Shown one piece after another: positions 2,021-31,143 of a stretch of 64,000 nucleotides of DNA. Position 1 is the stretch's first letter. Every line of letters begins with the position of its first letter. The DNA is from Candidatus Thalassarchaeaceae archaeon. GTDB taxonomy: Archaea > Thermoplasmatota > Poseidoniia > Poseidoniales > Thalassarchaeaceae. Below the pieces are notes generated by a model. That model saw only the letters and a program-made list of their open reading frames with translations. It was not told where the DNA came from and ran no database searches. The position numbers were made by a program, and so were the translations under genes. The stretch is taken from positions 15,232 to 79,231 of the forward strand of contig JASMKR010000004.1 of assembly GCA_030749075.1 (NCBI GenBank), in the 5' to 3' direction.

Positions 2021-2778
2021 TCGCCCTTCAGAACACGGTCGGCGATTCGAACCTCGGTGCTGGGGTCGGCCTGAATGATTGCGTTCGACGCCCTGCTCAG
2101 CGCCCTCTCGACGGCAGGGGCATTCTTGTCGGATAGTGCGGACTGGGCCTCTTCCAGCGCATGTTCGGCTGCGTCTAGCAGATCTGCCGAGTCCTCGCTC
2201 ACCCCCCTCAGACTGCGGACTGTGTCCTGGAGTTGTGTGATCTCCTCAATCATTTCCTCTTTGGCCAGAGCGACCAATCCCTCCCAGCTCGATGTGTGAG
2301 ATGACATGGTGCCCGAGGTCGCCTTCTCGAATGCCCTTACTCGTGACGCCTCCCAAGGGTTCCTGCCTAGGATGGCAACGATATCATGCACGCACCTCGC
2401 ACGCGCAGCCGATGGGCCCTCGATCACAATCTCATTGAGGAAGCACCTTGCCAATAGGCCGAAGCCCCAGTAGTGGCTACTTGAGATTCTCATTACCAGC
2501 TCGTTCGATCGGCAGAGAAGCTCCCAGCGCTGCTCGTCGTACCCCGGCTCCTTGGTGAACCTCGGTGGTTCGTGGGAGCCCATGGACCTGAGCGCCGCCT
2601 GAGCGACATCACCGAGGTAGACCTTCCCGGTAGCGCCCTTGGAACCATCGACTTGTAGGATGCCATCGTCGTCTATCGACATCCTGGGCCTTCCGTCCAA
2701 GACCTGGGCGTAGAGGACGGAGCGTCGCGCATCGAGGCCAATGGGGCCCGATTGCGTCTCACCCCCAAGCTCATTCAC
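2017..2778 (-). CDS. hypothetical protein with helical acidic C-terminus
   Basis: 253-aa ORF with no competing frame. No recognisable domain. An alternative start at MSIDDDG is possible. Confidence 0.5.
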   Translation of the reverse strand: MNELGGETQSGPIGLDARRSVLYAQVLDGRPRMSIDDDGILQVDGSKGATGKVYLGDVAQAALRSMGSHEPPRFTKEPGYDEQRWELLCRSNELVMRISSSHYWGFGLLARCFLNEIVIEGPSAARARCVHDIVAILGRNPWEASRVRAFEKATSGTMSSHTSSWEGLVALAKEEMIEEITQLQDTVRSLRGVSEDSADLLDAAEHALEEAQSALSDKNAPAVERALSRASNAIIQADPSTEVRIADRVLKGD

Positions 2779-2857
2779 GCTCTACTGTCCCAGCCCGTGT
2801 GGTTGAACGTTGCGCGTCGGTGGGAACCCCTAAGTCCCACCTCCCCAACACCCAGAC

Positions 2858-3052
2858 ATGCCTCGGAGGAAGTACGGGCGCCTCCAGAAGGTCGTCGAGA
2901 GGCCGCCCTCTGACAACTGCAGCAGGTGCAGGGCGGGCAAGCACTGCCCGATTCCCGGCCATCCGGGCTACGATGAGGGCGCCAATAGGACTTGGAAGGG
3001 CCCGGAGGCCGTCGACAAGCGGACCAATAAGAAGAACCCGTCACGGAGATGA
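2858..3052 (+). CDS. small basic Cys/His-containing protein (64 aa), hypothetical
   Basis: Exactly fills the gap between two minus-strand genes. By my hand count about 84% of third codon positions are G/C in this frame, whereas the antisense ORFs put that bias on position 2. Contains CSRCRAGKHCPIPGH. Confidence 0.4.
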   Translation: MPRRKYGRLQKVVERPPSDNCSRCRAGKHCPIPGHPGYDEGANRTWKGPEAVDKRTNKKNPSRR

Positions 3053-4069
3053 CTACTCGTTTGAACGGGAAGCAATCTTCGCTTCCTCGACCTGAGTCTC
3101 TGGAGCCTCCTCAACGGTTCCCTCCGTCAGAGGCGGACTTCGTTGAGCCCTGTGGTAAATCTCCCTCAGGGTCTGGTCGGTAATCTCCAGATATATGCGG
3201 GTGGTCGCTATGCTGGCATGTCCCAGCAGACGCTGGATGGTTACTAGATCGGCCCCTCGCTCGAGCAGTCCTGTTGCGAAGGTGTGCCTGAGGGTGTGCG
3301 GACTGAGCCGACTGCGCGGAATGTCGGCGGAATCAGCTAGACGATCCATCATCTTCTGAATCGAACGCGGGTTGATGCGCCTGCCTCTGCTCGACAGGAA
3401 CAGGGCTCTTTGATCCTCATCGTTGCTAATCGACAGCCTAGAAGCCCTGATTGGCCCCCAGGCCTCTATCACCTTAACCGTGGATTGGGTGAACAGCACA
3501 GTGCGATCCTTCTCTCCCTTGCCGCCGATCACGAGGGCCGACAGGTCCTCGGTGTCGATGTCATCGAGGTCTAGCCCGCACAGCTCGGAGACCCTCAGAC
3601 CGGTGTCCAAGAGAAGCGTGGAGATCGGGAGGGCCAGAGGGTCTTCGGAATCGCGAGTGGCCCGCCTGAGGCGCTGGAGCTCCTTTCTGCCAAGCGTCTT
3701 CGGCAGCGAGCGGCTTCTTGAAGGACGCTGAATCCAGTCCGGTACCGTGTGGCCCAGCCACTTGAGGAGATGGGAGACAGCAGCGATCTTGGCGTTGATA
3801 GTGGTGGGCTTCAGATCTCCCAGACCGTTCAGCCAGGCGTCCATTCTCCCATTGTTCGGATCCGATCTCATGTGGAAGGAACTGACCGGGAAGCCCCTAA
3901 CTTCACTCCAGTCGAATGACGGCTCCCTCGGCAGCCGAGTGGTCGAGAATTCACGCGCGGCAACTCCGTACGCCCTGATCGTGTGACTGCTCTTCTTCTC
4001 AGAGCGGAGCTGCTGCATCCAGCAGTCATGCCAGGAGAGTTCCGAAATCCTGTGCAACCTCGATGGCAT
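3053..4069 (-). CDS. xerA: tyrosine recombinase XerA-like (phage integrase family)
   Basis: C-terminal catalytic region ...LSPHTLRHTFATGLLERGADLVTIQRLLGHASIATTRIYLEI (HxxR...GH...Y) and an N-terminal SAM-like core-binding region (SSHTIRAYGVAAREF). The track ORF reaches 4165; I start at MPSRLHRISEL (4069), which is uncertain. Confidence 0.85.
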   Translation of the reverse strand: MPSRLHRISELSWHDCWMQQLRSEKKSSHTIRAYGVAAREFSTTRLPREPSFDWSEVRGFPVSSFHMRSDPNNGRMDAWLNGLGDLKPTTINAKIAAVSHLLKWLGHTVPDWIQRPSRSRSLPKTLGRKELQRLRRATRDSEDPLALPISTLLLDTGLRVSELCGLDLDDIDTEDLSALVIGGKGEKDRTVLFTQSTVKVIEAWGPIRASRLSISNDEDQRALFLSSRGRRINPRSIQKMMDRLADSADIPRSRLSPHTLRHTFATGLLERGADLVTIQRLLGHASIATTRIYLEITDQTLREIYHRAQRSPPLTEGTVEEAPETQVEEAKIASRSNE

Positions 4070-4308
4070 CGAGTTGTGCAGCCCTATCTCGTCAGCGCCG
4101 AACCTACGACCGAGCCTGCCTGTGTCTGCTCCGGCCCCCGGTCCGTCTGCGCTATCCCGCTGCAAAGTAACTCGCCTCCCGCCGCGAACGGCGCGTGCAT
4201 CCCTGTCCTAATGGACGAGGGCAAGGAGGCACCTCGGGACTTGAATGCTTCTCCAACCAAAACGAGAGAGACGACGTTAGCAAGCGTTCCGTTTCGCGCC
4301 GAATAGCC

Positions 4309-5277
4309 TCAGTAAGCGTCGGAGAACTCGCCTGACTCGGTTCCGCGGTCATCGGACTGACCCAGCCCCTGATCTTCTCGAACAATCTCCAATCGAATGT
4401 TCAGATGCTCGGCCACCTTTCCGGCTACGTTGACCCCGGTAGCGCCTTCAATGCCCTCCAGTCCCGGGCTTGAGTTGACCTCCAGAATCAGAGGTCCCCG
4501 CTTGGACTCGAGCATATCCACCCCAGCGAGGTCGAGTCCCAGCGTTTCGGTCGCTTGGACGGCGATTTCCTTCTGCCTCGGGGTTAGCTCGACCTCGTCG
4601 ACCGAGCCACCTAGGTGGAAGTTTGAACGGAACTCGTTGCCGTGAGCCTTGCGACGCATCGAGGCGACGACCTCACGCCCGACCACGAAAGCACGGACGT
4701 CTTGGCCGTGGGACTCCTCGATGTACTCTTGGACCAAGGGCCTCATCCCGCGTTCCAGCATTTGGTAAACCAATTGCCTGGCTTGCTGCTCGGAGCGTAC
4801 TAGGTACACTCCCGATCCATGCGTCCCCTCAGTGGACTTGACTACACAGGGGGTGCCACCGACGCGGCTCACCGCACGGCCGGTGTCCTCCCAAGCGCCG
4901 ACGTGCGCTGTGATGGGGACGGGCACGCGCTTCTCGGCCATCATCTGGCAGGCAACCAGCTTGTCACGACTCCTGACGATGCCGTGGCTGGGATTGAGTA
5001 CGATGGTCCCCATCTGCTCAAACTGGCGCACTATGGCTACTCCTCTGCGGGTGATGGAGTATCCAATCCTAGGAATGATGGCTTCACACTCCACTGGCCA
5101 ACCCCTGTGGAAGATCCTACCTCCCCTCTCATCGACCACGATGGTGAGGGTGAGCGGGTCTATGATCCGAACAGACCACCCAGCCTTCTCAGCCTCGGTG
5201 GCAAGCCTCCTCGTGCTGTAGAGTTCGGGCCCCCGGGACAGCACCACCAGCCGAGGCTCCATGAAATGCGCCGCCAT
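4309..5277 (-). CDS. rimK: RimK-type ATP-grasp alpha-L-glutamate ligase
   Basis: Colinear with E. coli RimK as I recall it: LVVLSRGPELYSTRRL...IIPRIG...SRDKL...VVKSTEGTHGSGV...LVQEYIEES.GQDVRAFVVG...FRSNFHLGG...GVDMLES.RGPLILEVNSSPGLEGIE. Start at ATG 5277 (MAAHF) or 5262 (MEPRL). Confidence 0.85.
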   Translation of the reverse strand: MAAHFMEPRLVVLSRGPELYSTRRLATEAEKAGWSVRIIDPLTLTIVVDERGGRIFHRGWPVECEAIIPRIGYSITRRGVAIVRQFEQMGTIVLNPSHGIVRSRDKLVACQMMAEKRVPVPITAHVGAWEDTGRAVSRVGGTPCVVKSTEGTHGSGVYLVRSEQQARQLVYQMLERGMRPLVQEYIEESHGQDVRAFVVGREVVASMRRKAHGNEFRSNFHLGGSVDEVELTPRQKEIAVQATETLGLDLAGVDMLESKRGPLILEVNSSPGLEGIEGATGVNVAGKVAEHLNIRLEIVREDQGLGQSDDRGTESGEFSDAY

Positions 5278-5394
5278 GGGATTGCCCTTCAACTCTTTGC
5301 CCCGAGAAAACGGGCATTGCTCTCGAGTGCTTGCCTGCGGGTCCGTGACGCCGAAGGGGTTGAAAGCCGCGGCTTGGGACTGCACACCGCTAGC

Positions 5395-7566
5395 ATGGCC
5401 GGAGACGATTCACTCGACCGCGAGACGTTGTCATCGATGACAGTGGCGGAACTGCGAGATGCCTGCAAGGAGAGGTCTCTATTTGTCTCAGGCAATAAAT
5501 CCCAGTTGGTTGACCGGATTTTGGAGGATCTCGGCGGCGAGCCTGAGCCCAGCCAGCCCGAAGCGGTCGACGCCCTGATAATGGACGAAGGCCCCTATGA
5601 AGCCGGCGATTCGAATCCCCCTGAGGTAGAATCCGAGAGGACTGAGCACGCTGAGGCCGCGGAGCAACTGATTGCAAGACTGAGCAAGGAGGACCAAACC
5701 GAGGAGACCGCGGACGAGGGCCCACGGTGGGGGGACGAGTCAGCGGAGGCCGAGGTATTAGAGGCCGAGTTAGTCGAGCCCGAAGCAGAGATCGTAGCCA
5801 AGGCTGCTGAGCCCACATCCCCCAGCGATGCTCCCGAGGAGGACGCAGCCTCCTTGGTCATCACCATCCCGACCATAACCTCTCTGGGCGAGCGGTGGCA
5901 GACTGTCGCTTCCATCGCTATCGTTGTGCTGCTCGTCGGAGCGCTGGCGACCCAAGTCCTGCAACGCAACTCTGGATTCTCTGCAAGGTCCCTCCACTAT
6001 GGAGACCAGATGGACTTCTACGTCAGCGAGTCGACCATTACCATCCAGGGGGATGAGATGCTGGGCCTAGTACGGGACTCCGCAGACAGCATACTCGACG
6101 AGGCCTGTGGGCAATTGACAGCGGTGATGTCCGGAACGGGGCAAGTCGCGATTTCCCAGGGCAGCGAAGACGGTGCTTCCCCCACCTCCGACAGCCTTGG
6201 GAGGGACGGGTTCCTAGCGGTTGAGAAACGACTCTCGATGAATCTGGACATCGACTTCGAGGGCAAGACTTGGAGAAATCCCGGCGATTGCGGCAATGTC
6301 GGTTGGTCGCTGTCCGACAATAAGATGGCCCTGGACTCAACCAGTTGGGTTGAGCTGGAAGACCGGGATTCGAAGCGCTCGGACTCCATCATCTCGTTCA
6401 CGGACATCGACTCCCGCTCCACCAACCTTCGAGCGGTGACCTACGGGTTCGATGGCTTCGGTGGGCTAGGCACCATTCTGCCCACCCTCGCCTTCCCGAT
6501 GACTCCCATAGAACTGCGCGCGTTCTTCGATGACGAGGTGCTGGTGGCCGGCGCCACCTCCTCTGACATTTCCAACTGGAACTCCGAGTGGTCTTGGGAG
6601 GTCAAGCCGGAGATCTCCCACGAGACCCACGGCCTAGTGTACCCAATAGAGATGCATCACGAAGACATAGGCCAGTGCTACGGACACGCCTACCTAAACA
6701 TCCTCGTAAAGCGCGACAGTCCGTGGCCAGTCGAGCAGGTAGCCGACATAGTCTTCGACAAGAACCTGAGGACCAATGACTGCAACTTCCTCGTCAGCTC
6801 GCTGTCGGAGGAACTCCTCCCCGAGGGCAGGATGTCGGTCTCGATGACGATGTCGAAGAGTTCCGGCTTGTCCGGAAGCACGGAGGTCGACTGGGGCAGG
6901 GACTACCTCAAGCCGAAGGCGGGCGAAGACCAGCCGAGCTCCTCCACGGAGCGAAACTGGGTGGATGCGATGTGGGACGAGTCGGAGATCAGGCCCTTCG
7001 ATCTCGAGGATGCCATCGCGTGCCTGAAGGCCAACCACTCGACTAGCGATGCGGCGATGGCTATACTCGATGGCGGCTACTTCTGGCAGGGCCAGTGGTC
7101 TCAGCCCACCGGAGCACCCGAGTGGAATCTGTCTTGGGTTGACGAAGACGACCGATCGGGGTGGCTCGTGCTGCGCTCGACGGACTCTGGAGGTTGCAAT
7201 GCAGTCGAGCAGGGCTCGAATGACGACGGAGAAGTAATTTGGAATCGGGACGCCATCCCGAGTACGCAGACGATGGCACTGCTGGAAGGCAGGATCCTCA
7301 ATCAGGCCCGATACCCGGATTTGCAATCCGAGATTGCCACCGCAGGAATCTGGCATTCCGACGCAACGGTCGGCTACCGGCTCTCGGTATCGGAGGACAC
7401 CCAGCTGTTCAGCTTCCTACCAGGTGACCTCGGTGAAGGGAAGGTTACCATGACTGCCGGCAGGGACTGGAACGAAGGGGGAAGGGATCACTCGATCGAC
7501 CTCGCCATGGACTCGGAGACTGGTGAGATGGTGACTTGGTACCACATCGACCGTCCCGCCGAGTGA
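5395..7566 (+). CDS. SAP-domain single-pass membrane protein with a large extracytoplasmic domain
   Basis: The track ORF begins at 4819, but its first 192 codons are antisense to rimK; ATG 5395 gives MAGDDSLDRETLSSMTVAELRDACKERSLFVSGNKSQLVDRILEDL, a SAP helix-extended-helix motif. An acidic linker of about 130 aa follows, then one TM helix (WQTVASIAIVVLLVGALATQVL) and a Trp/Asp-rich domain of about 520 aa. Confidence 0.7.
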   Translation: MAGDDSLDRETLSSMTVAELRDACKERSLFVSGNKSQLVDRILEDLGGEPEPSQPEAVDALIMDEGPYEAGDSNPPEVESERTEHAEAAEQLIARLSKEDQTEETADEGPRWGDESAEAEVLEAELVEPEAEIVAKAAEPTSPSDAPEEDAASLVITIPTITSLGERWQTVASIAIVVLLVGALATQVLQRNSGFSARSLHYGDQMDFYVSESTITIQGDEMLGLVRDSADSILDEACGQLTAVMSGTGQVAISQGSEDGASPTSDSLGRDGFLAVEKRLSMNLDIDFEGKTWRNPGDCGNVGWSLSDNKMALDSTSWVELEDRDSKRSDSIISFTDIDSRSTNLRAVTYGFDGFGGLGTILPTLAFPMTPIELRAFFDDEVLVAGATSSDISNWNSEWSWEVKPEISHETHGLVYPIEMHHEDIGQCYGHAYLNILVKRDSPWPVEQVADIVFDKNLRTNDCNFLVSSLSEELLPEGRMSVSMTMSKSSGLSGSTEVDWGRDYLKPKAGEDQPSSSTERNWVDAMWDESEIRPFDLEDAIACLKANHSTSDAAMAILDGGYFWQGQWSQPTGAPEWNLSWVDEDDRSGWLVLRSTDSGGCNAVEQGSNDDGEVIWNRDAIPSTQTMALLEGRILNQARYPDLQSEIATAGIWHSDATVGYRLSVSEDTQLFSFLPGDLGEGKVTMTAGRDWNEGGRDHSIDLAMDSETGEMVTWYHIDRPAE

Positions 7567-7636
7567 GACTAAAACCGCCCCGGCTCATCCAGTCCGAGCG
7601 TCATGTTCAACACTGCTCCTAGTGCCGTGCAACCCG

Positions 7637-8590
7637 ATGACATTGTCCGAGGACAGCGGAGAACTTCCTCAGGTTAAGGCCGCTCCACTAGTTCTGGACG
7701 TAGAGTTCACTGAGGTCGAGGACGAGACTCTCGCACCCCCCTTGAATGCCGTCGACGAGATCAGCACAGCCAGAGCACGCCGCCCGATGGAACTGCCAGC
7801 TTCGTTGCCCACGCCATCTGGTAGGGCCCGCGTGGTCACAGTGACCAATCAGAAGGGTGGCGTCGGCAAAACCACCACCGTGATCAACATCGGAGCCCAA
7901 CTCGCTTTGAGGGGCCATAAGGTCCTAGTGGTCGACTCGGATTCGCAGGGAAACTGCGCGACCGGGATGGGCGTGGACAAGAGCAGGGTCAGGGCCACCA
8001 CCAGAGACCTCATCCTGAGTCCCGAGACGGCAGTCGACTCGCGACACGCCACCGCAGTGGACAACCTGCACATAATCGTTGGAGACAGGAGCCTGATCGG
8101 GCTCGAGCAGGAGATGCTGAGGCAGCTCGGCCGCGAGAGGCGCATGAAGGAAGCCCTCGAACCCCTCCTGCCCCACTACGACATCGTCCTGATTGACACG
8201 CCCCCCTCCCTCGGCCTCGTCACAATCAACGCCCTCGTGGCCTCGGACGGGGTCCTCATCCCAGTGCAGACGGAGTACTTCGCACTGGAGGGGCTGGCCC
8301 TCCTTGCCGGAACAATCAGGGAGGTCAGGAGCCTGCTGAACAAGAATCTGGGCGTGGACGGCGTAATGCTGACGATGCACGCCCAGACCCTGCTCAACCA
8401 GCAGGTCGCAGGTGAGTTGCTGGAGACCTTCCCGGACCTAGTGGTCAAGCCGGCCATCAGGAGAAATGTCAGGCTGGCCGAGGCACCCAGTCACGGCGTC
8501 CCAATCCACTTGCACGACCCATCGAGCGCAGGTGGTCAGGACTACCAAGCAATAGCAACTGTTCTAGAGCGCCGATGGGGCCTTGTATAG
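7637..8590 (+). CDS. parA: ParA/Soj-family partition ATPase with an acidic N-terminal extension of about 65 aa
   Basis: Deviant Walker A VTNQKGGVGKTTT, then VLVVDSDSQGN, IVLIDTPPSLG and VLIPVQTEYFALEG. Start is ATG 7637 or the in-frame GTG at 7622. Confidence 0.9.
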   Translation: MTLSEDSGELPQVKAAPLVLDVEFTEVEDETLAPPLNAVDEISTARARRPMELPASLPTPSGRARVVTVTNQKGGVGKTTTVINIGAQLALRGHKVLVVDSDSQGNCATGMGVDKSRVRATTRDLILSPETAVDSRHATAVDNLHIIVGDRSLIGLEQEMLRQLGRERRMKEALEPLLPHYDIVLIDTPPSLGLVTINALVASDGVLIPVQTEYFALEGLALLAGTIREVRSLLNKNLGVDGVMLTMHAQTLLNQQVAGELLETFPDLVVKPAIRRNVRLAEAPSHGVPIHLHDPSSAGGQDYQAIATVLERRWGLV

Positions 8591-8591
8591 G

Positions 8592-9566
8592 ATGGCGGAG
8601 CGGGGGCTCGGCAGGGGCTTGGGCTCCATGGCGGAACTCTCCGAAAACACTCCAGACCTATCTGGTTTCGTGACATCCGAGGACACTCACGCTTTGGGTG
8701 ACACGGGGTCGGCCAAGGCAGCCGTGGTGTGGATGCTCATTGGCAGTGCGGCCTTCGGCGCCATGAACGCCATGGTCAAGTGGACTGACGACTTCGATAT
8801 CGGGGTCCCGACCGTCATCATGGTACGCAGTGCGGTTATTGCCGGTCTGGCCTTCGCGTGGGCATCCGTTAACTCACGTACTCTGAGGATAGTGAGCCGA
8901 AGGAAGATGATGCTGCGCTGCACCACAGGGCTTGTCGCCATGTTCTGCTACTTCTACGCCTTGCAACGCATCCCCATCACGCAGGCCGTATCCCTGCAGT
9001 TCACCGCCCCCCTATTTGTCGCCCTGCTTTCGGGCAGGGTGCTCAAAGAGAGGGTCTCGCCGTGGGTAGTAGTCTGCGTGGCAATCGCCTTCGTCGGCGT
9101 CGCCCTGATCATCTCCCCTAGGTTAGGCGAGATCGAGCCCAACGCGTTATTCGCTCTGGCATCGGGTTTCCTCGCCGCCATGGCCTACATGTACGTCAGG
9201 GACCTCAGGTCGACCGACTCACCCACTGGGGTTGTGTTCTGGTTCGCAGCCTTCTCCACGGTGGTCAGCCTGCCACTTGCGATACGGGAGACCGTAACCC
9301 TGGGAGCAGAGGAGATGCTAATCCTGATTGGCGTGGGTTTGGGTGCGGGGCTGGGACAGGTTGGCATCACCATGGCCTACCAGCAGGCGAAGGCAGCCTG
9401 GATTGCTGCGTTCTCCTACACAACCGTACTGGTGGCCTCCTTCTTCGGCTGGTTATTCTTCGACGAGGTACTGCTGATCGACGATTACATCGGGGCACTG
9501 CTCATCATCGGGACCGGGGTCGCCCTGATTCTTATGACCCCACAGAACGCCAGAACCGAGCCCTAG
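8592..9566 (+). CDS. EamA/DMT-family 10-TM transporter carrying a ParB-like N-terminal peptide
   Basis: ATG lies 1 nt after the parA stop. N-terminus is MAERGLGRGLGSMAELSE (ParB/Spo0J N-terminal LGRGL motif). Ten hydrophobic helices follow in two EamA-like halves. No HTH or ParB-box domain. Confidence 0.8.
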   Translation: MAERGLGRGLGSMAELSENTPDLSGFVTSEDTHALGDTGSAKAAVVWMLIGSAAFGAMNAMVKWTDDFDIGVPTVIMVRSAVIAGLAFAWASVNSRTLRIVSRRKMMLRCTTGLVAMFCYFYALQRIPITQAVSLQFTAPLFVALLSGRVLKERVSPWVVVCVAIAFVGVALIISPRLGEIEPNALFALASGFLAAMAYMYVRDLRSTDSPTGVVFWFAAFSTVVSLPLAIRETVTLGAEEMLILIGVGLGAGLGQVGITMAYQQAKAAWIAAFSYTTVLVASFFGWLFFDEVLLIDDYIGALLIIGTGVALILMTPQNARTEP

Positions 9567-9598
9567 CCATCATTCAAATTTGTCGCATGCCATGCCCT

Positions 9599-10585
9599 TC
9601 AGGACACGCTGCCGAGCGACTGGATAGTGATCGAGCCGCCCATGCTGCCGTGGTTCTGGCAGTAGTAGTACAGCGTGTCGGGCGCATCAAGCGGGACCGT
9701 GAACGTCAGTAGCCCGTCCGAGCCCTGAGTACCTGTGCTGGTGACGCCGCTCGTGTACTGGGTCCCGCCGCCGTGAGTGCCGTCGCTCGTTGTGGAGAGG
9801 CGGAACGGGTGTGGCGAGTTACTGGAGTCCGACTGGTCGAAGGTGTAGGTGAAACCTCGGTAGAGGACGATGTCCCCTTGCTGAATCCCATCGACTAGAA
9901 ACTTCATGCTCGAGACTGTTATCGTCATTTCCATGACAGTGGGCATTGAGCCCTGTGGGCCCTCGGCCCCGTCGGCACCATCCGCCCCGTCGGCCCCGGC
10001 TGCCCCCTCGAGCCCTTGGGACCCAGTCACCCCAGCGACCCCCGGAGGTCCCGAGATGTTTCCGAGGTCGATCCACTCGGAGCCGCTCCACACATGGATG
10101 TGGCTGGTGGATTGGACGAGGAAGCCATCCCCCTTGTCCCCGACGTAGATCTCGCCTAGCTCTGAGGTGTCCTCGACAGATCCGACTATGGTGAACGAGG
10201 TGCCATCGGCCCCCGCTGGCCCTGGGGGCCCTTGCGCCCCCCCAGGTCCCGCTGCCCCATCGGCGCCTGCCGGCCCCTGAGTGCCGTCTGCACCGTCGGC
10301 GCCGGGGGGGCCTGCCGGACCGGTCAGGTCAATCGTCATCCACGCCATTCCCGAGCAGGCCTGAAAGCCCGAATGGGATGCGACGTAGTACAGACGACCG
10401 TCGGTCGTCGAGTCGCAATCCGGCAGGTCCGATGCGCTCTGGACCAGGAACACGCCCCAGTCCTCGAGTTCGTCGGGGGGGTCCGAATCCGAATCGCTCT
10501 CGGATCCAAGGCACCCGGACAGGGCGCAGGCGGTCATCAGCATTGCAAGTAGTAAAGTCAGGGGCATCTGACTAGATTTCTTCAT
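9599..10585 (-). CDS. lipoprotein with two collagen-like Gly-X-Y tracts and a C-terminal cupredoxin-like domain
   Basis: Signal and lipobox: MKKSSQMPLTLLLAMLMTACALSGC. Gly-X-Y runs: GPAGPPGADGADGTQGPAGADGAAGPGGAQGPPGPAGADG and GPPGVAGVTGSQGLEGAAGADGADGADGAEGPQG. The C-terminus has ...SPHPF...LYYYCQNHGSMGGSITI, a C-x2-H-x2-M spacing as in amicyanin-type blue copper sites. Confidence 0.75.
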   Translation of the reverse strand: MKKSSQMPLTLLLAMLMTACALSGCLGSESDSDSDPPDELEDWGVFLVQSASDLPDCDSTTDGRLYYVASHSGFQACSGMAWMTIDLTGPAGPPGADGADGTQGPAGADGAAGPGGAQGPPGPAGADGTSFTIVGSVEDTSELGEIYVGDKGDGFLVQSTSHIHVWSGSEWIDLGNISGPPGVAGVTGSQGLEGAAGADGADGADGAEGPQGSMPTVMEMTITVSSMKFLVDGIQQGDIVLYRGFTYTFDQSDSSNSPHPFRLSTTSDGTHGGGTQYTSGVTSTGTQGSDGLLTFTVPLDAPDTLYYYCQNHGSMGGSITIQSLGSVS

Positions 10586-10613
10586 GCCCTTCCATGCTCA
10601 TCACACTACTTAA

Positions 10614-11303
10614 TCACTCGTGGAACTCGAAGAACTCTGAAACCTCGTCAAGACCTTTGCGCTGGAGGTCGGGCACCTTTGCATCATCCGCAGGATAGCC
10701 CACCGGCATCAGCAGCATGGCGTGCTCATGTTCCCGGCGACCTAGGATATCGCGCAGGAAGCCCATGGGGGAGGGAGTGTGGGTGAGCGTGACTAGGCCC
10801 ATGTTGTGGATGGCGGCGATAAATAGACCAGCAGCGATGCCGCACGACTCCTGAGCGTAGTAGGTAGGTGCCATCTCGCCGTTGGACCTCTCGCGCTTTG
10901 AGTGCCTGAACAGAACTACTATCCAGGGCGCATCGGTGACGTGCTCCTTGACGTGATCGGTTCCCAGTGGCTCGAGGACCTCTGCCCAGGCCTCCGGGAC
11001 CCTCTCCTCGTAGAACCTCATCTCCTCGGCCTCTGCCGCCTCCCTGATGCTCTCCTTGAGCGTTGGGTCGGATATGGCGACGAAGGTCCACGGCTGCAGG
11101 TGCGCCCCCGATGGCGCGGTGCTGGCAGTCCGGATTGCCAGCTCGATCAGATCGCGTGGCACCTCGCGGGCCGAGAAGTGGCGGGTGGTGCGGCGCGCGT
11201 CCAGCAGATCGTGGAACGCAACTGCTCGCTCCCGCATCTCGTCCTCCAGCAGTTCATGGAAGACTAGGGAGACGAATCCTGGCTCGTTATCGCCTTCGCC
11301 CAT
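10614..11303 (-). CDS. nitroreductase-family flavoprotein
   Basis: RRTTRHFSAREVPRDLIELAIRTASTAPSGAHLQPWTFVAISDP is the typical nitroreductase N-terminal FMN-binding signature. Confidence 0.8.
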   Translation of the reverse strand: MGEGDNEPGFVSLVFHELLEDEMRERAVAFHDLLDARRTTRHFSAREVPRDLIELAIRTASTAPSGAHLQPWTFVAISDPTLKESIREAAEAEEMRFYEERVPEAWAEVLEPLGTDHVKEHVTDAPWIVVLFRHSKRERSNGEMAPTYYAQESCGIAAGLFIAAIHNMGLVTLTHTPSPMGFLRDILGRREHEHAMLLMPVGYPADDAKVPDLQRKGLDEVSEFFEFHE

Positions 11304-28092: not shown

Positions 28093-28752
28093 TCATCGCT
28101 CAGGCAGTCCCTGCCGTTCCATCCTGGCAAGGGGGCCTGTGGGTCGGAGAATGGTCTTGGCCGTGCAGTCCTTGGACTCGTGGCCTATCCTCTTGCATCT
28201 CGCGCAGATGACGTTCTTGAGCATTAGATGCCTGGTGTTCCTCCTCTTGGCATCCTCTGCAGTCATCTCCCTTTCGGGCTTGATTACCGTCTTCGAGCCG
28301 TCTGGGTGGACTTTGATTACCGTACCGTCCTTCTTCTTGGTGCGGCCCACGACCTTCTTCCCCTTCGACCTCCTCTTGGGCTTGGGCTTCGGTCGATAGA
28401 CCCACGACTTCTTGGTGATGGTGACCCCATCGACGGTGGTCTTGTTGCGGCAGCTGGTACGGATATGGCCCGGCCTTCCGCACCTGCCGCAGGTTACTTT
28501 CCTCTTCGTCTGGATGTATGGCCCCCCTCGCACCTTGCTGGCGCCATGCTTCTTGATCATGCGCTCAGCGATTTTCTTCTCATCGGATTTCTTCACGTTA
28601 CTGAGGTAACTGACGACCCGCTTCGGCTTGTGCTTTTTCGTCCACTTGGCCTCCTTGCCCAAGACGTGCTGCTTCAGCCTCCTCTCGCCGTCGGCAGTCC
28701 TCCCGACGTAGTAGTTGCCGCCCTCACATTCGAGAACGTATACGTCCACCAT
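28093..28752 (-). CDS. GIY-YIG nuclease-domain protein with two CCHC zinc knuckles and Lys-rich linkers
   Basis: VYVLECEGGNYYVGRTADGERRLKQH...KW is a GIY-YIG N-terminal motif. CGRCGRPGHIRTSC and CARCKRIGHESKDC both fit C-x2-C-x4-H-x4-C. The track ORF extends to 28794; I prefer ATG 28752 (MVDVYVLE). Confidence 0.7.
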   Translation of the reverse strand: MVDVYVLECEGGNYYVGRTADGERRLKQHVLGKEAKWTKKHKPKRVVSYLSNVKKSDEKKIAERMIKKHGASKVRGGPYIQTKRKVTCGRCGRPGHIRTSCRNKTTVDGVTITKKSWVYRPKPKPKRRSKGKKVVGRTKKKDGTVIKVHPDGSKTVIKPEREMTAEDAKRRNTRHLMLKNVICARCKRIGHESKDCTAKTILRPTGPLARMERQGLPER

Positions 28753-28869
28753 GGTATTCCGAGGGAAGCCACTCCGGATTATATTGACCCTCATCGGTAA
28801 GCAATGGGATTGTAGGACTGAGGTCAGATGAGGGGCTCCGCTTCTTGATCTGTCTGAAATTACTCTCAG

Positions 28870-30084
28870 ATGAGGCCGAACTCACGCTGGTTCGCCACTT
28901 CAATAGTCCTTCGAAACCGTGTTTATCGCCCGATTTGGACCCTCCGCTCTCAAATACCCCGAAACGCGCGTAGACTTGGGGATGGGCACTTGAGTGAGAG
29001 CAAGTCACCGGATGCGGACAATGCCGAGGGCATCGACGAACTCGATGCGATTAGGGCCCAGCACGCACGCTCCTCCTCTGGGACGCCTCACTCTTCGAGG
29101 GCACGGGAGCGTTTGGATGAGGAGTCGAACCTGCGATCTGGGATACGAAGGGAGCGCAGGATGCGTATCGCGAAGATGACCGAACGGGTCTCGGGGATGC
29201 ACGGTGCGATGAGGAAGGCCAACGAGATACTCTTCGAGGAGCAGCTCCAGCAGATCGAGGCCGATCTCAGGGACGAGCTCGAGGAGGAGCTCGAGAGGCT
29301 GGAGACGGAGGCGCTGGAGCGCGAGGAGCGTCTGCTGCGCGAGGAGATGCTGCACAGGCTGCGCCGCGAGGAGAACAGGCTAAGGGAACAGCTCGACTTG
29401 GAGAGGGACCGCAGGGTGGAGGCTCATTCCACCAAGGTGCGCGACCGGCTCCGAGAGGAGATGGAGGTCGAGTTCTCTAGGAGGAGGGCCTTCCTCGAGG
29501 AGCGCTTGGAGCTCGAAGCCTCACAGAGCATCGAGCGCATGGAGCGAAGGGTCCAGATGGACCTGCGCGAGGCGATGGAGTCCCAGGTTCACAGGAAGTT
29601 GGATGCCCATCGCCTGGACCAGGAGATCCAGATGCGCAACAGAATCGCCAAGAAGCGAAGGAAGCACGAGTCGAAGTTAGAGAAGCAGCTCGAGAGCGAG
29701 CGCGAATCGCTGGAGAAGGAGATGACCTCAGACATCGATGAGAGGACCAAGGCGCTGGAGGAGGAGGCCGAGCGGGCAGCGCTGGGCGAACTCGATCGCA
29801 GGTTCCGTACCGAGCGCGAGACCATGGAAGCGGCTCTGGCGCTACGACGACAGGAACTCGCCCTGGAGCGCGAGGTCGAGATGGAGCAACGAGTAGCCGA
29901 CTTTGTCAAGCAGCGGGAGTCAGAGATGATGTCCAACCTCGAGAAGCAGCTCTCTAAGCGCTCCGACCTGTCGAAGAAGGAGGTCGGGGAGATGCTCAAG
30001 GCCATGGAGTCCGAGATCAGGGTCAAGATGGAGGCAGCCCTGCTGGACGCCCGACAGAGCGTTATGGAGAAATCCAACTCATAG
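28870..30084 (+). CDS. Glu/Arg-rich coiled-coil protein (start uncertain)
   Basis: About 300 aa of uninterrupted charged heptad-like sequence, e.g. EELERLETEALEREERLLREEMLHRLRREENRLREQLDLERDRR. No TM helix and no enzymatic motif. Later in-frame starts (TTG about 28992, ATG about 29161) are possible. Confidence 0.6.
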   Translation: MRPNSRWFATSIVLRNRVYRPIWTLRSQIPRNARRLGDGHLSESKSPDADNAEGIDELDAIRAQHARSSSGTPHSSRARERLDEESNLRSGIRRERRMRIAKMTERVSGMHGAMRKANEILFEEQLQQIEADLRDELEEELERLETEALEREERLLREEMLHRLRREENRLREQLDLERDRRVEAHSTKVRDRLREEMEVEFSRRRAFLEERLELEASQSIERMERRVQMDLREAMESQVHRKLDAHRLDQEIQMRNRIAKKRRKHESKLEKQLESERESLEKEMTSDIDERTKALEEEAERAALGELDRRFRTERETMEAALALRRQELALEREVEMEQRVADFVKQRESEMMSNLEKQLSKRSDLSKKEVGEMLKAMESEIRVKMEAALLDARQSVMEKSNS

Positions 30085-30240: not shown

Positions 30241-31143
30241 CTATGCTTCGTCAATCGCTCTTATCCTAGCATCTGCCTCCTTGGCGAAATCCCAGTATGC
30301 CATACTCGCGGGGTTGGATTTGGTCGGCTTCTGCGCGATTACGATAGGAGCTCCCTCCAAGGGCGACTCTGCGATTGCCACCGAGCGCGGTATCTGCGTC
30401 TCGAAAACCCTGTCACCGAAGTGCTTGCGCGCCTGCTCGGTCACTGCCTCACACAACTTGCTCCTCGACTGCACCATTGTAAGCAGGATTCCGAATAGCC
30501 CGAGGTCCGGGTTCACCGACCTCTGGACCTCCTTGATGGCGTTCATCAGTTGCCCCATGCCCTCCAAGGCGTAGAACTCGGCTTGGATCGGTATCAGGAC
30601 CCACTCGGCTGCGGCTAGGGCATTGATGGTCAGCAGCCCCAGTGACGCTGGTGTGTCGATGATGATTACATCGAAGGTCCCCAAGGCCTCCCGCAGGGCG
30701 AGCCTGAGTCGATTCTCCCTGCCCACCCTCGTGGCTAGGTCGACCTCTATGCCGGACAGGTCGAGGTCGGCGGGCAGGACCCAGAGGTTACGTATGGCGA
30801 TGTGCTTCGGGGGGCCGCGCTTTCTGTCCGGGTTGTGGCTCTTCCATGCCGCGTACATCGACCTCGTGAGGATCTCGGGCCCCAGAATGCAGTCGTCCAG
30901 CGCGAGCGAGTCGTCATCCAACCCCTTGGAGAAAAGCTCGTCCATGGTGGGCCCCACGTTTCGCTTGTCCACCCCGAAGGTAGTGGCTACGTTCCCCTTC
31001 GGGTCCATGTCGACCAGTAGCACCCTCCTGCGGCGGATTCCGTATTCGGTGCTTCCCATCGCGAGGGCGGAGGCGAGGTTGACCGCGGTAGTGGTACGCG
31101 AGCAGCCGCCCTTGTGGTTGACGCAGGCGATGACTATGGCCAC
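30241..31143 (-). CDS. ParA/Soj-like protein with a non-canonical Walker A (KGGCSRTT)
   Basis: GTG start. (M)AIVIACVNHKGGCSRTTTAVNLASALA, VLLVDMDPKGN, VIIIDTPASLG and VLIPIQAEFYALEG are colinear with the ParA at 7637. I checked the nucleotides: tgc tcg cgt acc sits where ggc aag acc is expected. Confidence 0.85.
   Translation of the reverse strand: MAIVIACVNHKGGCSRTTTAVNLASALAMGSTEYGIRRRRVLLVDMDPKGNVATTFGVDKRNVGPTMDELFSKGLDDDSLALDDCILGPEILTRSMYAAWKSHNPDRKRGPPKHIAIRNLWVLPADLDLSGIEVDLATRVGRENRLRLALREALGTFDVIIIDTPASLGLLTINALAAAEWVLIPIQAEFYALEGMGQLMNAIKEVQRSVNPDLGLFGILLTMVQSRSKLCEAVTEQARKHFGDRVFETQIPRSVAIAESPLEGAPIVIAQKPTKSNPASMAYWDFAKEADARIRAIDEA

Follow-up and report, generated by a model that had tools for sequence, protein, structure and literature searches.

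A stretch of 64,000 nucleotides (nt) from the genome of a Candidatus Thalassarchaeaceae archaeon (contig JASMKR010000004.1, positions 15,232 to 79,231 of the forward strand; hereafter the window) was analysed around a group of three genes, encoding a membrane protein with a SAP domain, a ParA ATPase and a permease whose N-terminal tail resembles the ParA-activating peptide of ParB. The original prediction, made from the sequence, had described these genes as co-directional and closely spaced, and the open reading frames (ORFs) were found as described:

5395-7566, + strand: SAP-domain membrane protein, 723 amino acids (aa); Pfam SAP
7637-8590, + strand: Soj-type ParA ATPase, 317 aa; Pfam AAA_31
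8592-9566, + strand: EamA/DMT permease with ten transmembrane (TM) helices, 324 aa; Pfam EamA in two stretches

The gap between the SAP gene and parA is 70 nt when counted from the parA ATG, or 55 nt if a GTG at 7622 is used as an alternative start, and parA is separated from the permease gene by 1 nt. The flanking genes, rimK and a gene for a collagen-like lipoprotein, are located on the opposite strand, also as predicted.

Conservation of the gene triad in related genomes, a check proposed together with the prediction, was analysed for 94 Poseidoniales loci, 80 obtained by scanning one genome for each GTDB species and 14 from contig look-ups. The loci from the scan are nearly all labelled as Poseidoniales, Marine Group II (MGII) or other archaeal metagenome-assembled genomes, and the sequence inspected comprised the 64 kb of this genome and 8-17 kb per relative. 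Wherever the contig was long enough, the order integrase (-), rimK (-), SAP gene (+), parA (+) and next gene (+) was found. The triad is syntenic across the Poseidoniales, and the succession of SAP gene, parA and next gene was kept even at loci carrying different genes on both flanks. ParA is the best-conserved product of the block, with 72-93% identity to the ParA of the window (86 loci); identities to the window proteins ranged from 50 to 90% for the permease and from 37 to 86% for the SAP protein. The gene following parA begins between -20 and +3 nt relative to the parA stop codon at all of the 90 loci measured.

ParA ATPase and the ParB-like tail

The ParA of the window matched Pfam AAA_31 (E=3e-54), CbiA (2e-20) and MipZ. 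All 86 ParAs of the family that were compared share the deviant Walker A motif NQKGGVGKTTT without change, and the core motifs are conserved. The best matches in the PDB were a bacterial ParA (8ray, 5e-57), Thermus thermophilus Soj (1wcv, 2.5e-49) and Helicobacter pylori Soj (6iub, 1.6e-40). Weaker matches were found to MinD (2e-16), McdA (2e-14) and the 'SOJ protein' entry 7dut (2.5e-12), which we take to be archaeal SegA. This ranking agrees with the canonical Soj type predicted for the gene; by its motifs and matches, the protein is a genuine bacterial Soj-type ParA ATPase, which may bind DNA and may have an ATPase activity stimulated by DNA and by the N-terminal peptide of its partner. Two other identities were considered and rejected. 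A MinD requires a membrane-targeting C-terminal helix, and this ParA ends about 10 residues past the aligned end of Bacillus subtilis Soj, with no MinD-like C-terminal amphipathic helix. A SegAB identity of the locus was discarded because of the weak 7dut match and the lack of a SegB-like neighbour. At the other end, the protein is extended:

7637-7822, + strand: N-terminal extension of ParA, residues 1-62, not present in bacterial Soj

Two conserved patches, ..APLVLDVEF.. and ..PxxLP.., are located inside this extension. A comparison with 1.84 billion cluster representatives set the ParAs of Poseidoniales apart as an isolated clade; scores fall sharply outside it, and the nearest ParAs beyond it are generic bacterial ones with at most 50% identity.

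The permease begins with a tail (as longer peptide MAERGLGRGLGSMAELSENTPDLSGFV) in which two conserved motifs could be recognized:

8592-8630, + strand: predicted ParB-like ParA-activating tail MAERGLGRGLGSM at the start of the permease gene, with GLGRGL at 8604-8621
8652-8669, + strand: second tail motif PDLSGF (consensus GPDLSSFV), 10 residues after GLGRGL

An alignment of 26 permeases, down to 51% identity, gave the consensus MxKxGLGRGL, with no variation at L6, G7, R8 and L10 and very little at G5 and G9; in the second motif, P21 is invariant and D22, L23 and S24 nearly invariant. Among the first 86 loci, GLGRGL was present at 54 and GLGRSL at 4, in addition to a few near variants. All four Gly, six Leu and six Arg codons are in use at the motif positions (56 distinct loci). 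With every synonymous codon in use, it is the peptide that is under selection rather than a nucleic-acid signal (RNA or DNA) at the parA stop codon. In the six-frame translation of the window GLGRGL occurs once, versus 0.065 occurrences expected.

In the structure of the H. pylori ParA-DNA-ParB(1-10) complex, the peptide MAKNKVLGRG contacts ParA by Leu7 and Arg9, both conserved in ParBs, and R10 of T. thermophilus Spo0J and K3/K7 of B. subtilis Spo0J are required for ATPase stimulation (PMC11229316). The permease tail aligns with this H. pylori peptide. When a 30-column profile of the tail was compared with 177,635 PDB sequences, residues 3-14 of H. pylori ParB (KNKVLGRGLADI) ranked second, at an E-value of 0.5 that is not significant alone because the motif is so short. 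The positive-inside rule, applied to the alternating K/R-rich loops of the protein, predicts a cytoplasmic tail, which is also predicted to be disordered or flexible, as residues 1-39 fall below a pLDDT (per-residue model confidence) of 50 in the AlphaFold2 (AF2) model. The claim of a ParB-type peptide on a 10-TM protein was thus borne out by motif conservation, match and predicted topology, and by analogy with ParB the tail may stimulate the ATPase activity of ParA.

Behind the tail, the protein is a transporter. Pfam assigned EamA in two stretches (E=7e-25) and no other family, and NCBIfam returned DMT models alone, including weak 2A78 and YddG matches that are both below cut-off. In the AF2 model (predicted TM-score, pTM, 0.76), about 40 flexible N-terminal residues precede ten TM helices. 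No ParB/Srx CTP-binding domain (GxxRxxA), helix-turn-helix (HTH) or dimerisation domain was detected with Pfam and NCBIfam. A ParB identity was rejected for this protein, given the ten TM helices after the tail and the exclusive EamA/DMT matches.

The permease is not the only carrier of the tail. In one lineage (loci L087/88, L091/92 and L093/94), with a ParA about 65% identical to that of the window, no EamA gene follows parA, and a soluble protein of 153-162 aa without TM helix is encoded instead:

L087, 7938-8426: tail protein gene
L091, 6969-7436: tail protein gene
L093, 4617-5078: tail protein gene

Near its N-terminus this small protein keeps an invariant KGLGRGLG.LL..HDTDLPFL, in which DLPFL is the counterpart of the PDLSGF motif and HDTDLPFL is invariant within the lineage; the protein had no match in Pfam, NCBIfam or the PDB. 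The order of SAP gene, parA and next gene is intact in this lineage despite an extra gene and the missing permease. That two unrelated proteins, each encoded immediately behind ParA, carry one and the same tail argues against a transporter-specific role of the tail, and the absence of the permease from one lineage makes it one host of a modular tail and not the core of the system. From the 'ParB-tagged transporter' of the original prediction, the tag is therefore retained, its sequence being under peptide-level purifying selection, whereas the transporter proved dispensable and the tail was found rehosted on a small soluble protein.

Further observations were made in the small-protein lineage. 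The small protein has a conserved C-terminal stretch, LPxVPSDL..PG...G.L.DDRS.A.V.IIQWGI..RRL..RL.EH. The extra gene, between rimK and the SAP gene, encodes a TM protein of 376-468 aa, and a peptidase C1 gene is located after the nitroreductase gene.

SAP-domain protein and upstream motifs

The product of the first gene is predicted to be a single-pass membrane protein with the following parts:

5428-5532, + strand: SAP domain, residues 12-46 (Pfam PF02037)
5533-5890, + strand: acidic low-complexity linker
5890-5967, + strand: TM helix, about residues 166-191 (AF2 helix 168-191)
after the TM helix, + strand: C-terminal domain of about 540 aa, beta-rich (AF2), with six invariant Cys and many Trp

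The SAP match (E=2e-11) scored 43.6 bits against a Pfam gathering cut-off of 23.9; the motif lies ahead of the TM helix, as the original prediction had it. In an AF2 model of moderate confidence (pLDDT 67.5), the SAP helices are found at residues 17-26 and 35-46, and V17, L20, L29, S32, G33, K35 and R41 are the invariant SAP residues of the family alignment; the domain may bind DNA. As the start of the protein is not signal peptide-like and the cysteines follow the TM helix, the SAP head is probably cytoplasmic and the large domain external. The family comprises 63 clusters, each consisting of full-length proteins or fragments of the same architecture, and the source names, where given, are all Poseidoniales or Thermoplasmatota. 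For the fold of the C-terminal domain, Foldseek returned no PDB match at E<=1e-3; the top-ranking beta-barrels were rejected, having TM-scores of at most 0.17 normalised by query length. A sequence search of the whole protein against the PDB gave matches to SAP domains alone.

Because the SAP protein adjoins ParA exclusively and the adjacency survives rearrangements, it is a plausible ParA partner. The linker, which is otherwise variable, keeps two short motifs, ALI(L/M)(D/E)(D/E) and (V/I)EAE(V/L)VEAE(L/V)V. These motifs and the N-terminal patches of ParA are candidate docking sites between the two proteins.

The start of the SAP gene was assigned to the ATG at 5395. The ORF is open already from 4819, but the extension overlaps rimK and the relatives begin at the SAP-proximal ATG. 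One database entry (P0121, 766 aa) has an early start 43 codons upstream. Both genes diverging from the 117-nt intergenic region, rimK and the SAP gene, have over-called start codons. Two conserved non-coding motifs were located upstream of the genes of the triad:

5350-5368, + strand: GCCGAAGGGGTTGAAAGCC, about 30 nt upstream of the SAP-gene ATG; candidate TFB-recognition/TATA (BRE/TATA) element
7598-7613, + strand: GCGTCATGTTCAACAC, 16 nt, about 25-30 nt upstream of the parA ATG

The first motif is conserved at 23 of the 23 loci compared there (24 selected), including L087 and L091 with a different upstream gene. The second is conserved at all EamA-type loci and is different in the small-protein lineage; it could be a separate promoter of parA and the tail gene. 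The GGTTGAAAG core of the first motif is not enriched elsewhere in the window, and GCGTCATGTTCAACAC has no further exact match there. A generic promoter consensus for the two motifs could consequently not be shown, and their promoter role is proposed from their position.

In many lineages (loci L004, L010, L011, L019, L024, L062, L082, L089 and L090) a perfect palindrome GAGCGCC-N3-GGCGCTC is present between the promoter-like motif and the parA start, for example at about 6020-6043 in L024. In the clade of the window, the non-palindromic ctagtgccgtgcaacccg stands in its place at 7614-7633. The palindrome could be an operator or form a 5' hairpin.

Possible function and origin of the module

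The locus can be regarded as a real, conserved module of a ParA and an activator peptide, and as a variant of ParA partner system that is apparently undescribed: the literature searched contained no description of ParA in Poseidoniales/MGII, of a DMT permease carrying a ParB-type tail or, in archaea, of SAP and ParA as a pair. The reading preferred here, held with moderate confidence, is that of a working ParA-activator pair in which a membrane-anchored, ParB-derived tail stimulates a Soj-type ParA, the SAP protein being the probable link between DNA and membrane. The module would be an order-wide ParA positioning module of Soj/ParAB ancestry in the Poseidoniales, in which the body of ParB appears to be gone and its N-terminal activating peptide is left, grafted onto whichever protein directly follows parA, mostly the 10-TM DMT permease and in one lineage the small soluble protein. 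ATP-bound ParA dimers, probably located on the nucleoid, would be engaged by the cytoplasmic tail by means of its K/R-x-GLGRGL and DL..F motifs, and the conserved Arg of the tail would trigger ATP hydrolysis and release of ParA, as does the tail of ParB. With the activator in the membrane, the ParA cycle would be restricted to the interface between nucleoid and membrane, where it may transiently couple the nucleoid to the envelope or distribute it relative to the envelope. The likeliest third component would be the single-pass SAP protein, with a putative DNA-binding head, cytoplasmic and tethered to the membrane, and a large domain predicted to be extracytoplasmic.

The relationship to the bacterial ParABS system (Soj/Spo0J) is close. 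This ParA is Soj-type, sharing about 50% identity with bacterial ParAs; the genes are arranged and tightly coupled at stop and start as in bacterial parAB, and the gene after parA starts with (K/R)xGLGRGL, at the place of the ParB peptide that contacts and stimulates ParA (PMC11229316). In contrast to the bacterial system, no ParB/Srx, HTH or dimerisation domain was found in the permease or in the scanned parts of the window, no parS-like repeats were found near the locus, the tail is carried by a 10-TM DMT permease or a small protein, and the host is archaeal. The module is probably a relic of a bacterial parAB. In the simplest history a bacterial parAB would have been gained, the ParB body lost and the tail kept by fusion. 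No intermediate or outgroup with parA-parB-EamA was found among the 1.84 billion representatives, so an origin from parB is what we infer, not what we observe.

Several results weigh against the preferred reading. In the ParA tree, three clades with 21 loci altogether have no tail, implying at least three losses, and ParA and the SAP gene are intact there; the tail-less permeases have short N-termini such as MSDLGERGSPYVAP, resembling internal deletions. A decay of ParA after tail loss was rejected, as the ParAs of these clades differ at just nine conservative sites, with no convergence among the three clades. Loss of the tail with retention of ParA means that the tail is not always required or that a substitute exists elsewhere, and at least one function of ParA would therefore be possible without a permease-borne tail. 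Hester and Lutkenhaus reportedly identified, in 2007, R189 and R218 of B. subtilis Soj as residues for non-specific DNA binding. The R189 position is Gln in the Poseidoniales ParAs and Arg in all three bacterial sequences aligned (8ray, 1wcv and B. subtilis Soj), so nucleoid binding by this ParA is not assured; the equivalents of R215 and R218 are kept in the family (IRRNVRL). No centromere-like or parS-like repeats were detected in a repeat search over 2500-10800, where the repeats that did appear were attributed to the collagen-repeat coding array and to chance pairs and rejected as a centromere. The conserved motif between the SAP gene and parA makes two transcription units likelier than one operon, and the SAP gene is probably outside the parA transcript. 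Adjacency alone is moreover weak evidence for involvement of the SAP protein, because the whole neighbourhood is syntenic. To these points the E-value of the ParB match can be added.

The original prediction went further and proposed that the two functions of ParB are split between two membrane proteins, forming a tether between chromosome and membrane. Synteny, the Soj-type ParA and the conservation of the tail speak for this proposal; the dispensable permease, the loss of the tail in at least three clades and the promoter motif before parA speak against it. In its full form, a Poseidoniales chromosome segregated or anchored by a ParB-less membrane ParA machine, with DNA binding by the SAP protein and ATPase activation by the permease tail, it is considered unlikely. 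Equally doubtful is a positioning of protein cargo, by which a nucleoid-bound ParA would space or partition the tail-bearing membrane protein, the DMT permease or complexes containing it, as PpfA does with TlpT clusters and McdA with McdB-carboxysomes, and the SAP protein would be a mere neighbour. The tail does sit on the cargo-like protein itself, with no DNA-binding domain attached; the permease body is strongly conserved (74% mean column identity in the 26-sequence alignment), as expected of a transporter that works and does not just serve as an anchor; a promoter-like motif of its own precedes the SAP gene; and many cargos are placed by ParA/MinD ATPases by means of N-terminal partner peptides (PMC11407121). 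A single-copy permease would, however, be an odd cargo, and its replacement in one lineage by a small soluble protein that bears this tail too means that it cannot be an essential one. The permease also persists without tail in three clades, and the SAP-ParA adjacency outlasts rearrangements on both sides.

A conventional segregation system would have its true centromere-binding adaptor elsewhere or unrecognised, leaving the permease tail as an accessory leftover of parB and the SAP protein as unrelated. The high conservation of ParA in the tail-less clades would fit such a system, as would a second ParA-like gene at 30241-31143, by which ParA-family functions are not limited to this locus, and the view is limited to 64 kb here and 8-17 kb per relative. 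Yet a scan that covered ORFs of 200 aa or longer in most of the window, together with the genes surrounding the locus, gave no ParB/ParBc domain. A redundant relic would hardly hold invariant key residues with all synonymous codons throughout the order, or recur on a second protein body at the same genomic position, and this explanation is judged quite unlikely. Very improbable is a tail unrelated to ParA, serving membrane targeting, transporter regulation or translational coupling, with a coincidental likeness to ParB. The motif has 6-10 residues, its ParB match is not significant by E-value, and its start abuts or overlaps the parA stop codon, where a constraint at the nucleotide level is conceivable. 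Such a DNA or RNA constraint is excluded by the use of all synonymous codons at every motif position, and a role in membrane insertion by the occurrence of the same tail on a soluble protein without TM helix. Furthermore, the tail always follows a Soj-type parA, exactly where the tail of ParB is encoded, and GLGRGL is found once in the window against the far lower chance expectation.

The preferred ParA-activator pair can also be compared with systems in which ParA works with partners other than ParB. PpfA-TlpT, McdA-McdB and ParC-ParP likewise consist of a ParA-family ATPase with an adjacent non-ParB partner whose N-terminal region is presumed to interact with the ATPase, and ParA/MinD partners usually act by their N-terminal region (PMC11407121). 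The peptide described here differs in being close to the ParB consensus and not a family-specific basic stretch, its carrier is a transporter integral to the membrane, and the pair is accompanied by the conserved gene of the SAP-TM protein. Among archaea, HpaAB of Haloferax volcanii combines a ParA of bacterial origin with a non-ParB partner encoded by an overlapping downstream gene, and the N-terminal ~12 residues of HpaB are needed for ParA-dependent positioning (bioRxiv 10.1101/2025.11.19.689047). Both are archaeal hybrids of a bacterial-origin ParA and a non-ParB downstream partner. Unlike the permease, which has no DNA-binding domain, HpaB is a soluble centromere binder of the ribbon-helix-helix (RHH) type that forms foci on a secondary chromosome; the ParA of the present module is Soj-like and not MipZ-like, and the module is chromosomal and order-wide.

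SegAB and the ParA-AspA-ParB system of pNOB8 resemble the module in having a ParA-family ATPase, proposed for archaeal segregation, with non-canonical partners. The present ParA is far nearer to bacterial Soj than to 7dut, and no SegB, AspA or ParB homologue was found in the locus by Pfam, the SAP domain being the sole DNA-binding-type domain in the neighbours. Membrane-DNA tethers are known from LEM/HeH (helix-extended-helix) proteins of the eukaryotic inner nuclear membrane and from Noc/RacA of B. subtilis. The SAP protein, with its predicted cytoplasmic SAP head (a helix-extended-helix fold), linker and membrane anchor, recalls these by analogy alone; there is no homology beyond the SAP fold, and its Cys-rich extracytoplasmic domain has no structural match.

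Poseidoniales are the most abundant planktonic archaea of surface oceans. To our knowledge they have never been cultivated, and the mode of chromosome segregation of most archaea is unknown. The locus offers a defined ParA, a peptide of 10-30 residues and a SAP head, all of which can be tested in vitro without culture. The ParA-activating tail of ParB appears to be portable, having outlived the rest of ParB and been rehosted on unrelated proteins including an integral membrane transporter, so that partners of 'orphan' ParA ATPases, bacterial as well as archaeal, can be sought among a wider range of proteins. If the tether reading is true, nucleoid and envelope would be coupled in a new manner, by a membrane-anchored activator acting together with a DNA tether of the SAP type, and a split ParB would be a segregation architecture not described in any domain of life.

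Neighbouring genes and a second ParA-like gene

The genes adjoining the triad, all transcribed in the opposite direction, are the following:

3053-4165, - strand: XerA-like recombinase
4309-5385 (ORF), - strand: rimK, likely true start at 5277 (MAAHFME), judged from relatives
9599-10585, - strand: collagen-repeat lipoprotein

The wider neighbourhood (XerA-like, rimK, nitroreductase, PUA, S8e, SRP19 and PolB genes) is likewise syntenic throughout the order. The proximity of XerA, cited in the original prediction as a hint of a chromosome-maintenance neighbourhood, therefore adds little. As for a replication origin, the ORFs scanned in the window gave no Orc1/Cdc6 domain. What lies between the permease and nitroreductase genes differs by locus, which places the collagen-like gene outside the conserved module. 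This interval holds the collagen-repeat lipoprotein gene in the window and a gene for an unrelated protein of 410-424 aa in L001-L003, and is empty in L004-L006. A PGF-CTERM protein is also encoded near the locus; together with the names attached to homologues, it points to an MGII origin of the window (Poseidoniales, probably Thalassarchaeaceae).

At a distance from the triad, the second ParA-like gene is part of another group of genes in the window:

28093-28794, - strand: very basic protein of 233 aa; GIY-YIG nuclease domain, then CCHC motifs resembling zinc knuckles
28870-30084, + strand: 404-aa Glu/Arg-rich coiled-coil-like ORF
30241-31143, - strand: second ParA-like gene, 300 aa
31184-32170, - strand: MoxR AAA ATPase

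The product of the second ParA-like gene is 36% identical to the ParA of the triad, and its best PDB matches are also Soj/ParA. Its Walker A motif reads HKGGCSRTT, the catalytic Lys being replaced by Arg, and a long insertion follows the P-loop. No gene for a tail-bearing partner is adjacent to it. It adjoins the MoxR AAA ATPase gene on one side and converges on the coiled-coil-like ORF on the other, and the gene of the GIY-YIG/CCHC protein adjoins this group of coiled-coil-like ORF and ParA-like gene.

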